From sequence record MG673519.1: a DNA stretch of 64,000 bases; one strand, written 5' to 3'. The stretch is from Escherichia phage LAMP. Made by a program: the position numbers and the translations under genes. The notes below the pieces were generated by a model. That model ran no database searches and was not told the DNA's origin. It saw only the letters and a list, made by a program, of their open reading frames with translations. Positions 46,968 to 49,077 of this stretch are shown one piece after another (within the stretch, counting starts at the first letter, position 1; each line of letters begins with the position of its first letter).

Positions 46968-48998
46968 TTAACCTCTATTCAATGAACATTTAGGAGAATT
47001 ACAATAAACTTGATTCATAGAACCAAGCGTACAACTTTCAGCATCGCGCCACGGAATCTGCTTAAAACACCCTGAGCAGTAGCCGAGGGTTGACCACATT
47101 GCTTTGGTGAAATCAGTGCTTCGGTTTCCGTCGAAGCTGACAACAGTTTTGCGGAGAGCTGTTCGTGATTCAGGAAACACACCTGCTTTCTCAGCAGGTT
47201 CCTCCTTTTTTGGCTTAGTTGAGATTGCAAAAATACTGTTGCTACGTTTCTCAACATAAGCATCAACAACATCCTCCAGAGTAATGCCTGTCTGTTTCGC
47301 TGAGGAAGGTAATACAGTCATACGACCAATCATATCTTCAGTTACACGTAAAGCAAATTCAGGACGACGGGCGTTTGTTGTATCTGTTGCTTTAATCCAG
47401 ACATAACCATCTTTGATCGTAGCATTAGATACTTTCTTCTTTATATCTACAGCGCAGACTTTACAGATATCTTCACCACGAAGACGACTGAGTTCATCAT
47501 CAAACTCGTTCTCTGTTTTAACTTCACCACAGATTTCACAAACACCAATAGGAGTTTCCTCCTCTTCTTCATCTTTAGGCTTAGTCAAACCTTCCAGACA
47601 TTCAGGGTGCCAGTAGCATTGATATGCGAAGACTGCTTTAGGTGCATCCTTCCAATCAATGTGTTTATCACAACCGCCACAATCACCATGAGAATGTGCT
47701 TCCCAGAATTTACGAGTGATAGTAACGCCATTCTTGTTGACGAAACTATCATTCATATCAAAAGGGATATCATCATCAAAGTCAGCAGTAGTTGACTCAG
47801 GCTCCTTTTTCTCCAGAGATGGGTCAACAAAACGACCTGCTGTGATCACTAAACGAACCATAGCATTAACTTCGGAGATACAGGATACTGTCCCACGGTA
47901 AACAATTTTAGGGTCTTTCAGGGCATCCTGATAAGCCTTAATGTCTACGTTATGAACATCACCTTCGATATACTCTTGAGATTTCTCATCGTAGATATAA
48001 CCAATCATCTTACCCCGAGAAGGAACAGCACCAGCAGTTGCATAAGGGACAAACTCATGTGGTGTGATCTCCACAGTCATGTCGCGGCGAATGTCAATGT
48101 TTCGATCGCTTGCGATTTTGTTTTGACTTACCACTGCGTTTCTTCGACGAACGTCTGCCGCTGTCACTCCCGGCTTCGTGTCGTAAGGATTGCTTGTACT
48201 GCTTTTTGAGGAACTTTGATAGTTGCTTTGGCTGTAGTTGTTCGAGTAGTAATTGCCCCAACGATTGATTACCGTAAAAACCGGAAGCTCGTGGGCGACC
48301 TCTTCAACTAGAGTCATGCTGTTGTTTGACACATCAAAGATGTATTCTGTACCAACTTTACATTCAAAGTGCTCATCAATGCGATTCTTGTGAGACCTAG
48401 AACGCTTCAGAATCCACATCAACATATCTTCTTCAGAAGCACCAAACCAATCTCTGTTACAACGTGCAAGATGGAAAGGACGCTCTTCATTACGGATGAT
48501 ATGAAGACGATTATCAGAAGCATCATGCCAGATTAAGGTGAAAGCACCATCCAGCTTTTGAATAGTCTCTGCTGCACCAATAGTGTTAATAGAGTGGCAG
48601 ATGTTTTCACTGTCTACCTCGAAGTTTTTACTGTCAGGTAACAGGTCTTGGTTCATCAAGGTTCCGTTATGAACCAGAGTGATGTTACCGTGTTGGAAAG
48701 GATGGGCGTTCTTGGCGTTAACTGCACCTTTCGTTGCATGACGGCTGTGACCAACAATCCATGAAGGTGCTACAGTGTAAGCTGTTTCACCAGTGGTGTG
48801 CTTCTTGTACTCATCTTGAAGGATGAATGCGAAAGAAGGAAGTGCCTCTTTATAAGTGAAGACTTCTTTAGTGCTTTTACGCTGACCAAAGATACCAGAG
48901 GAGTGCTGTCCTCGGAATACTCCAGCATAAAAGAGTTGGTTAAATATATCTAAATCAGTGCTTGACAGATTACCGCCAGCTAATACGATGCCACAAAT
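46968..48998 (-). CDS. class II (Ntn) glutamine amidotransferase with C-terminal Cys-rich zinc-ribbon region; apparent AUU start
   Basis: Frame open 113 codons upstream of the track start, bounded by TAG; encodes (I)CGIVLAGG, GHSRHATKG, NAHPF, LVHNG, DSENI; AGGTGG 8 nt upstream of ATT. Confidence 0.65.
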   Translation of the reverse strand: MCGIVLAGGNLSSTDLDIFNQLFYAGVFRGQHSSGIFGQRKSTKEVFTYKEALPSFAFILQDEYKKHTTGETAYTVAPSWIVGHSRHATKGAVNAKNAHPFQHGNITLVHNGTLMNQDLLPDSKNFEVDSENICHSINTIGAAETIQKLDGAFTLIWHDASDNRLHIIRNEERPFHLARCNRDWFGASEEDMLMWILKRSRSHKNRIDEHFECKVGTEYIFDVSNNSMTLVEEVAHELPVFTVINRWGNYYSNNYSQSNYQSSSKSSTSNPYDTKPGVTAADVRRRNAVVSQNKIASDRNIDIRRDMTVEITPHEFVPYATAGAVPSRGKMIGYIYDEKSQEYIEGDVHNVDIKAYQDALKDPKIVYRGTVSCISEVNAMVRLVITAGRFVDPSLEKKEPESTTADFDDDIPFDMNDSFVNKNGVTITRKFWEAHSHGDCGGCDKHIDWKDAPKAVFAYQCYWHPECLEGLTKPKDEEEEETPIGVCEICGEVKTENEFDDELSRLRGEDICKVCAVDIKKKVSNATIKDGYVWIKATDTTNARRPEFALRVTEDMIGRMTVLPSSAKQTGITLEDVVDAYVEKRSNSIFAISTKPKKEEPAEKAGVFPESRTALRKTVVSFDGNRSTDFTKAMWSTLGYCSGCFKQIPWRDAESCTLGSMNQVYCNSPKCSLNRG

Positions 48999-49077
48999 TT
49001 TCTAATCCACCTGAAGGGTAAACCCTTTCATCTAATTAACCTTTAAATTGTGCCCCTTCGTCAGAGGCACCCATTGA

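Follow-up and report, generated by a model that had tools for sequence, protein, structure and literature searches.

A Probable AUU Initiation Codon Directly before the Catalytic Cysteine of a Kuravirus Glutamine Amidotransferase, and the Leader That Goes with It

Reading Frame and Annotation of the Gene

The 64,000-nt stretch of Escherichia phage LAMP (sequence record MG673519.1) analyzed here, which we call the window, belongs to a phiEco32-like E. coli podophage of the genus Kuravirus and carries on its minus strand a gene for a glutamine amidotransferase in which the codon before the catalytic Cys is ATT. All coordinates are those of the window, and the feature is read 5' to 3' on the minus strand throughout. 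The reading at the start is ...CAGGTGGAT TAG AAA ATT TGT GGC ATC GTA..., translated stop-K-I-C-G-I-V. The frame is shut by an in-frame TAG (49004-49002) two codons before the Cys, after which come an AAA codon (49001-48999), the ATT (48996..48998), and the TGT of the catalytic N-terminal Cys1 (48993..48995). In the longer context, ...GAAAGGGTTTACCCTTC AGGTGG ATTAGAAA ATT TGT GGC ATC GTA..., a Shine-Dalgarno (SD) sequence, AGGTGG (49007..49012), stands 8 nt (ATTAGAAA) from the ATT; its duplex with the 3' end of 16S rRNA has an energy of -5.9 to -7.2 kcal/mol. The full coding sequence (CDS), orthologous to phi32_83, extends from the ATT over 676 codons to a TAA stop (46968..48998). With the Met removed, the mature protein would have 675 aa and a mass of 75.9 kDa, and the N-terminal tryptic peptide expected from the 676-aa form is CGIVLAGGNLSSTDLDIFNQLFYAGVFR.

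A preliminary description of this DNA, made from its letters, had reported the closing TAG followed by AAA ATT TGT, the AGGTGG 8 nt before the ATT, and the lack of an in-frame ATG, GTG, or TTG before the GHSRH and HNG motifs. The minus-strand reading confirms all of these (the AGGTGG at 49012-49007), and the first canonical start in the frame is the TTG at 48659. It is with this internal TTG (48657..48659, Leu113), just past the HNG motif and 113 codons downstream of the ATT, that the program-made list of open reading frames (ORFs) begins its version of the gene (46968..48659; 563 aa, 63.8 kDa), which therefore omits 113 N-terminal codons, including that of the catalytic Cys, as had been pointed out. 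The same false start is found in many GenBank records. Among the ORFs of 150 codons or more, a scan of the whole window found a run of at least 35 start-less 5' codons in the amidotransferase frame alone; the start-less 5' end is therefore no general property of the sequence.

The ATT start is not new as such, as it has been known as an annotation since the phiEco32 record (2008). Phage JacquesWildberger_Bas92 matches an 801-nt query that surrounds the start (window 48600-49400) with 99.9% identity, and the gene is the orthologue of phiEco32 phi32_83, with 98% identity over residues 1-298. The CDS is already begun at ATT in phiEco32 (EU330206/NC_010324; phi32_83, 54493..56523, 676 aa), the SU10 RefSeq entry, Bas92, and the BASEL phages; among the 100 CDS of Bas92 (85 ATG, 10 GTG, 4 TTG, and 1 ATT), the amidotransferase is the sole one with ATT. 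A protein that lacks the catalytic Cys is annotated in NJ01, Paul, PAS59, EcoN5, YF01, KM01, and many others, and the Paul record has an "RBS" annotated before the false start. Discussion of the start codon was not found in the literature searched on phiEco32, on Kuravirus, and on ATT starts in phages, a search that did not extend to the 2008 genome paper. Likewise, we did not find described the invariant leader, the recurrence of ATT/ATC with neither GTG nor TTG before Cys1, or the leader architecture that accompanies it.

Evidence for ATT as the Start

Taken whole, the explanation we prefer is that the ATT at 48998-48996 is a genuine initiation codon, from whose product the Met would be removed, and that the site may serve as a weak one; we regard this as very probable. 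Its best supported part, from sequence comparison, is putative de novo initiation at AUU on an SD-led mRNA. In the phage collection, 96 of 96 Kuravirus records carry the 60-nt start region at ≥95% identity (73 are identical), and it is also present in 6 metagenome contigs. Every Kuravirus sequence read base by base has ATT-TGT, so that the codon is conserved among these orthologues, and there is no canonical alternative where the protein must begin. At exactly the same position, ATG-TGT is found in 10/10 relatives read from other genera (Proteus, Cronobacter, Salmonella, Aeromonas, Pseudoalteromonas, and Pantoea phages, together with uncultivated contigs). The preliminary description had held that an ATG in orthologues would speak against the ATT. 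Distant orthologues do have ATG there, but the consequence drawn from it does not follow; because ATT is fixed in all independent Kuravirus genomes read, the distant ATG supports the position of the start and is no refutation.

That Cys must be the first residue, as was also proposed at the outset, is borne out by the family. An alignment of 42 sequences has C1 without exception, MCG opens 68 of 86 homologue clusters, and position 2 of the PHROG 4736 profile aligns to Cys1. Variation within the genus leads to the same place. Across 14 distinct Kuravirus sequences, the variable sites in codons 2-114 are distributed 29:19:95 over codon positions 1:2:3, with neither a stop nor a frameshift, and the third-position periodic pattern begins at codon 3; in the 81 nt upstream of the ATT, the same sequences have no periodicity (7:6:7). 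This pattern of substitution shows that the 113 "missing" codons behave as codons under protein-level selection; they are also needed for the predicted N-terminal nucleophile (Ntn) fold. The homologous ATG and the third-position variation that starts right after the ATT thus both support the suggested start at a noncanonical AUU directly before the Cys.

The Encoded Enzyme

The N-terminal 250 residues constitute a class II (Ntn) glutaminase domain. Within it, residues 75-192 are covered by Pfam GATase_6 (56.7 bits; cutoff 27) and GATase_7 (30; cutoff 25) together. GATase_6 spans residues 75-175, across the false TTG start; since that TTG falls inside the glutaminase domain, the truncation halves both the GATase_6 domain and the Ntn fold. 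The invariant columns of the 42-sequence alignment are C1, G2, R28, G29, H83, R85, T88, N110, G111, D128, and S129. An AlphaFold (AF2) model built on this alignment has a mean predicted local distance difference test score (pLDDT) of 91.4 and a predicted template-modeling score (pTM) of 0.88; its first beta strand starts from residue 2, and the model has the predicted four-layer alpha-beta-beta-alpha Ntn fold. Foldseek matches it in the PDB to the glutaminase domains of GlmS, PurF, asparagine synthetase (ASNS), and EgtC with probability 1.0 and TM scores of 0.60-0.68, and a sequence search of the PDB with the amidotransferase gave no matches. Together, the Pfam, AlphaFold, and fold matches bear out the identity first assigned to the gene and support a class II (Ntn/PurF-type) glutamine amidotransferase with predicted glutaminase activity.

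No Pfam family matches the C-terminal 415 residues (~260-675; window 46971-48215, minus strand), in which three CxxC...CxxC clusters are zinc-ribbon-like in appearance, and PHROG 4736 reaches only to residue 517 of the protein. No SIS domains were found in the Pfam scan, and the Foldseek GlmS matches cover the glutaminase domain alone (~260 columns). The product name "L-glutamine-D-fructose-6-phosphate aminotransferase" is unsupported, because the C-terminal part is without a SIS or other Pfam match.

Recurrence of ATT and ATC across the Family

Our search for further noncanonical starts began from homologue gene calls without an MCG N-terminus, which were followed to their contigs; among GenBank phages, 327 records have hits to the family. 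All seven truncated calls that could be read (P0018, P0024, P0037, P0039, P0048, P0052, and P0065) have ATT directly before TGT or TGC, and in these seven the interval from the last stop to the Cys offers no canonical start in frame. In one more call, P0004, the TGT is likewise preceded by ATT, and a GTG lies three codons upstream. Three of the ATT lineages reached through truncated calls were found in 2-3 independent samples each.

The IMG/VR relatives (L031-L110) were not selected for truncation. In the best 80 of 243 such relatives, the codon before Cys1 is ATG in 71, ATT in 8 (5 Kuravirus and 3 others), and ATC in 1; GTG or TTG before Cys1 occurs in 0 of these 80. Given that GTG and TTG make up 14% of Bas92 starts, the chance of their absence is 0.86^71 = 2e-5. 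One of the relatives, L051, has a start that reads ATG TGC TGT GGA (M-C-C-G), with two consecutive Cys codons. Altogether, there are 12 ATT/ATC lineages, which lie in about 9-10 separate places on a neighbor-joining tree; the deep nodes of the tree are unreliable, and the number of independent origins is approximate.

Some comparisons separate the history of the leader from that of the protein. The proteins of L115 (ATT) and L084 (ATG) are 98% identical, and their leaders are unrelated. In L115, an HNH endonuclease gene (746-1147) is located directly upstream, and its stop overlaps the amidotransferase start (1135-1140) by 13 nt; insertion of a homing endonuclease may have brought the new leader to L115. 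Conversely, the window and L027 share an identical SD-spacer-ATT string, GGATTAGAAAATT, with proteins that are 39% identical, and L064 and L114 share the string AGGAGATGAGAAAATT with proteins that are 46% identical. Such identical strings in distant lineages hint that the leader is exchanged as a unit.

Leader Features That Go with ATT

We compared leaders using one representative per lineage, with 12 ATT/ATC lineages set against 64 ATG sequences. The median SD-antiSD duplex energy is -10.2 kcal/mol for ATT/ATC and -5.9 kcal/mol for ATG (Mann-Whitney p = 8.5e-6), and an anti-SD of 13 nt gives -11.05 and -6.15, respectively (p = 1.4e-6). The ATT lineages other than Kuravirus have a GGAGG(A/T) SD at 7-8 nt. 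Of the 11 ATT/ATC lineages scored for spacing, 10 place the SD 7-8 nt from the start; in ATG leaders, the distance is 0-15 nt, mostly 6-10.

A hairpin is the second distinguishing feature. A perfect hairpin of at least 5 bp that ends 13-15 nt before the start, and so abuts the SD, is present in 9/12 ATT/ATC leaders versus 4/64 ATG leaders (Fisher p = 9e-7). When only intergenic gaps of at least 25 nt are considered, the counts are 8/10 and 2/16 (p = 0.001), and in the same set the median folding energy of positions -40 to -13 is -5.95 versus -0.25 kcal/mol (p = 3e-4). The stems differ by lineage (AAGGG, GTGACAG, AATGC, AACGC, AGACTAA, CCTAG, CTAGG, GCTAGA, and GATACC); their position is kept, and their sequence is not. 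In a MAFFT alignment, which is gap-free and right-aligned, the stems lie in different registers, and the evidence for the hairpin is the comparison of ATT with ATG leaders, not covariation. The recurrence of the hairpin, strong SD, 7-8-nt spacer, ATT, and TGY in distant lineages argues for selection over accident.

The Kuravirus Leader

In Kuravirus, the 47-nt leader (48999..49045, minus strand) is invariant in the 14 distinct sequences, as are all positions from -47 to +8. The surroundings are not so constrained: 54% of columns vary at the 3' end of the upstream gene and 35-44% in the amidotransferase CDS, and protein identity among these phages goes down to 76%. From 5' to 3', the invariant stretch comprises TAAAGGTTAATTAG, the ATG of a mini-ORF, a hairpin, one nucleotide, AGGTGG, and ATTAGAAA. 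The small hairpin, AAGGG-TTTA-CCCTT (49014..49027, minus strand), ends 1 nt before the SD and can be extended to UGAA(A)GGG/CCCUUCA, a 7-bp form with a bulge that takes in the UG of the mini-ORF ATG. This in-frame mini-ORF of nine codons (49002..49031, minus strand; MKGFTLQVD and the TAG stop) ends 3 nt before the ATT, and it may be incidental. A second copy of the leader was not found within the window.

We also looked for known signals in the leader. There is no sigma-70-like promoter on the strand of the gene in the leader. The phiEco32 gp36 promoter motif, tAATGTAtA, has been reported just upstream of genes 6, 13, 26, 40, 58, and 68 and is absent from the leader. Rfam gave no family near threshold there, the best being astro_FSE with 16 bits against a cutoff of 70.

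The string TAGATGAAAGG(G/A)TTT is common to the Kuravirus leader and that of Cronobacter phage GAP52 (L014); L009 and L010 were compared as well. In GAP52, AAAGGA acts as the SD of an ordinary ATG start. Comparison of the two leaders suggests that the 5' arm of the Kuravirus hairpin may be an ancestral SD, sequestered after an insertion of ~20 nt that bore the new SD and the ATT. Before their SD, the outgroups have a TTTAAATG(T)AAA motif in common.

Gene Neighborhood

The upstream neighbor is an Amidoligase_2 family gene, the phi32_84 orthologue (49078..50181, minus strand), with 79 nt from its stop to the ATT. Between the amidoligase stop and the leader lies a stem-loop, GTGCCTCT-GACGA-AGGGGCAC (49050..49070, minus strand), which in other Kuravirus lineages reads GCGCTCT-GATAA-AGGGCGC, with a compensatory change from U-A to C-G and one pair fewer. 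No T run comes after the stem-loop, which is thus not a typical intrinsic terminator; the outgroup phages also have a hairpin at this position.

The amidotransferase is part of an early-gene cluster that comprises a RimK-like ATP-grasp protein, two small ORFs, the amidotransferase, the Amidoligase_2 protein, a 205-aa protein, and a "phiEco32-like COOH.NH2 ligase type 2", with a gamma-glutamyl cyclotransferase further along. The two small ORFs (74 and 77 aa) are directly downstream of the amidotransferase. By the Bas92 annotation, this cluster of amide-bond enzymes occupies 45329-51611 of the window on the minus strand (L119, 45665-46084). Distant relatives keep the gene partners of the cluster in varying order. 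Elsewhere in the window, the sole tRNA, tRNA-Arg(TCT), is at 56850-56925 on the minus strand, and the HNH endonuclease gene of Bas92 directly adjoins it on the opposite strand.

Proposed Mechanism and Alternatives

An AUU start is read by initiator fMet-tRNA. Deformylase and methionine aminopeptidase would then strip the Met, as the known specificity of the latter leads one to expect, because Cys is permissive as the second residue. In the phage gene, initiation at AUU with fMet followed by Met removal would expose Cys1 as the nucleophile. We propose that the AUU, together with the invariant 47-nt leader with its SD-abutting hairpin and 8-nt A-rich spacer, may form a deliberately inefficient, condition-sensitive initiation site. 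By analogy to other AUU mRNAs, such a role appears likely. In E. coli, expression from AUU falls below that from AUG by a factor of 6-8 in a standard context and of 4 at the infC junction (PMC3592434). AUU is also the start codon most sensitive to excess initiation factor 3 (IF3), to minimal-medium extracts, and to guanosine tetraphosphate (ppGpp), and it competes poorly at low temperature (PMC5499595). A weak AUU site would hold the glutamine-hydrolyzing enzyme low, and its output would vary with IF3 level, ppGpp, and growth state as in those mRNAs. A low supply of glutaminase-type activity that depends on the state of the host may be the most economical reading. That the AUU is usable at all would then be due to the strong SD, the fixed spacing, and the hairpin beside the SD; the hairpin could conceivably stack on the SD helix, keep the SD unpaired, or stabilize the mRNA.

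Several observations weigh against parts of this proposal. Each hairpin taken alone is no stabler than shuffled sequence (z from -1.5 to +0.4), and the hairpin signal consists of its position and the comparison with ATG leaders, because single hairpins are not significant against shuffles. No lineage of the ATT group has a weaker SD than Kuravirus, and ~30% of the ATG-lineage leaders are equal or stronger; the idea that a strong SD compensates for the codon therefore suits the window less well than the other lineages. Some of the ATT sample was picked for truncated gene calls, and frequencies must rest on the IMG/VR set alone. In SU10-infected cells, the protein was detected with nine peptides, among the early proteins (PMC4281155). 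These peptides were searched against the truncated 63.8-kDa entry (the full protein is 75.9 kDa) and are silent on the N-terminus; matched only against that entry, they cannot discriminate between starts. Out-of-frame UUG and GUG codons, 2 and 4 nt downstream of the AUU (AUUUGUGG), could compete for initiation. Lastly, the regulatory purpose (a low level, and sensing of IF3 or ppGpp) is something that we infer by analogy.

Two other candidates at this site were tried and rejected. Initiation at the out-of-frame codons of AUUUGUGG yields only an 8-codon (UUG) or 4-codon (GUG) peptide. A -1 frameshift at AAAATTT was rejected by eye, as the site is no canonical slippery heptamer when read in the right frame, and ribosomes would not be delivered to it by any ORF upstream.

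The alternative that survives best is termination-reinitiation. Here, the mini-ORF (ATG 49031 to TAG 49002) would be translated, the hairpin would be melted, and ribosomes held by the SD inside the mini-ORF would reinitiate at the AUU. This is a variant of our preferred explanation and not exclusive of it, as AUU is still the start; we consider it possible but doubtful. The mini-ORF shares the frame of the enzyme, does not vary, and stops 3 nt short of the AUU; an AAGG lies 8 nt upstream of it, with an A/U-rich stretch before that. The gap is likewise 3 nt at the infC junction, where use of the AUU doubled through reinitiation (PMC3592434), and given that the Kuravirus SD is the weakest among the ATT lineages, some additional aid of this kind may be needed. 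However, the mini-ORF is without synonymous variation and thus gives no sign of its translation, its AUG is partly paired in the predicted hairpin, and a short ORF that stops beside the ATT is not a consistent feature of the other ATT lineages. Moreover, the homologous string in GAP52, TAGATGAAAGGA, is plain leader and SD and is out of frame with the ATG start of that phage, so the mini-ORF ATG may be a relic.

The shared frame of the mini-ORF and the enzyme also allows a read-through propeptide, in which translation would start at ATG 49031, the TAG at 49002 would be read through, and a 12-residue extension would be removed autocatalytically to expose Cys1. Some Ntn amidotransferases do carry a short propeptide; Bacillus subtilis PurF, with a canonical start and an 11-residue propeptide, is likewise one whose coding sequence is not simply Met-Cys. 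The phage lacks the uninterrupted frame of the PurF type, as the in-frame TAG two codons before the Cys leaves no canonical-start propeptide possible. A suppressor tRNA was not found in the window, whose one tRNA reads Arg codons, and the MCG clusters above are without a propeptide. The other 11 ATT/ATC lineages have no in-frame ATG-initiated ORF upstream, and in all ATT/ATC lineages the ATT or ATC immediately precedes the Cys, which is predicted by the start codon model but not by a propeptide. We therefore regard the propeptide as very improbable.

Even less credible is that the 563-aa protein from the internal TTG/ATG is the real product, with the upstream 113 codons an untranslated relic or the gene in decay. 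In its favor, this start is the one that gene finders pick, it stands in many GenBank records (NJ01 and Paul, for example), and the SU10 proteomics matched the 63.8-kDa entry, though in a search that could not tell the two forms apart. The substitution pattern of codons 2-114 described above (mainly third positions, without stop or frameshift) contradicts it, as do the invariant C1, G2, R28, G29, H83, R85, N110, and G111 that these codons hold and the bisection of the GATase_6 domain and Ntn fold by the truncation. Finally, the preliminary description had raised the concern of a sequencing or assembly error, in which ATT would stand in place of a true ATG; the codon differs by one base from the ATG of the other genera. 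Such an error is practically negligible, being refuted by the replication of the ATT and leader in the 96 independently sequenced Kuravirus genomes and the 6 metagenome contigs.

Returning to initiation at AUU itself, we can extend the proposal one step further, very tentatively and with the expectation that it is probably wrong. The leader with its hairpin, strong SD, 7-8-nt spacer, and AUU might be an exchangeable translational "throttle" cassette that has repeatedly replaced AUG start regions, partly by recombination, and ties synthesis to the translational state of the host. If so, the cassette would link a glutamine-consuming enzyme to the IF3:ribosome ratio, ppGpp, and temperature, and the role of the hairpin would be to make the AUU usable through an effect on the 30S-SD complex, such as stacking on the SD-antiSD helix.

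Significance

Nothing is overturned by these results, as AUU initiation is an established mechanism and the record of the type phage already shows the ATT start. For annotation, the catalytic N-terminus is cut off in most Kuravirus records and in every automatic gene call examined, and what is left is a 563-aa "enzyme" that has lost its nucleophile. Those truncated calls that we read in other lineages of the family conceal the same problem. The family offers a naturally replicated case of AUU initiation, with 12 ATT/ATC lineages, 96 Kuravirus genomes, and close relatives that use ATG. Because start codon and leader features co-vary, it is a ready comparative and experimental system for what makes a noncanonical start usable, and it bears on why a phage would want a weak start on a glutamine-hydrolyzing early enzyme.

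Comparison with Known Systems

The gene, leader, and ATT of the window are those of phiEco32 phi32_83, with no difference of substance. GlmS, PurF, and AsnB/ASNS have the same fold as the phage enzyme and share with it Cys1, the Arg in GH(S/N)R.AT, the Asn-Gly oxyanion hole, and the D-S-E motif; in them, as in the phage enzyme, Cys1 must be a free N-terminus. Their identity to the phage enzyme is just 14-20%, and its C-terminal 415 residues differ from the sugar isomerase, phosphoribosyltransferase (PRTase), and synthetase domains of GlmS, PurF, and AsnB, respectively.

As to the start codon, the closest parallel is E. coli infC, the gene of IF3, which like the phage gene has an AUU start with an SD, conserved among relatives. 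In both, a stop lies 3 nt before the AUU (UAA GGU AUU in infC and UAG AAA AUU in the phage). The stop before the infC AUU, however, belongs to a real gene, thrS, whereas that in the phage belongs to a nine-codon ORF of doubtful significance. Use of the infC AUU is depressed by IF3 (PMC3592434, PMC5499595); there, the codon closes an autoregulatory loop in which IF3 discriminates against AUU, whereas the phage enzyme is without a known link to initiation. In E. coli pcnB (Binns & Masters 2002, as cited in PMC3592434) and Enterococcus faecalis ebpA (PMC4447247), an ATT start limits the amount of protein, and both genes were first misannotated with a downstream canonical start. These are single cellular genes, whereas the phage ATT recurs across the lineages of a family with a leader in which a hairpin abuts a strong SD. 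The AUU mechanism is thus of a kind known from infC, pcnB, and ebpA, and it is the conservation of the leader, its recurrence, and its architecture that go beyond the existing annotation.

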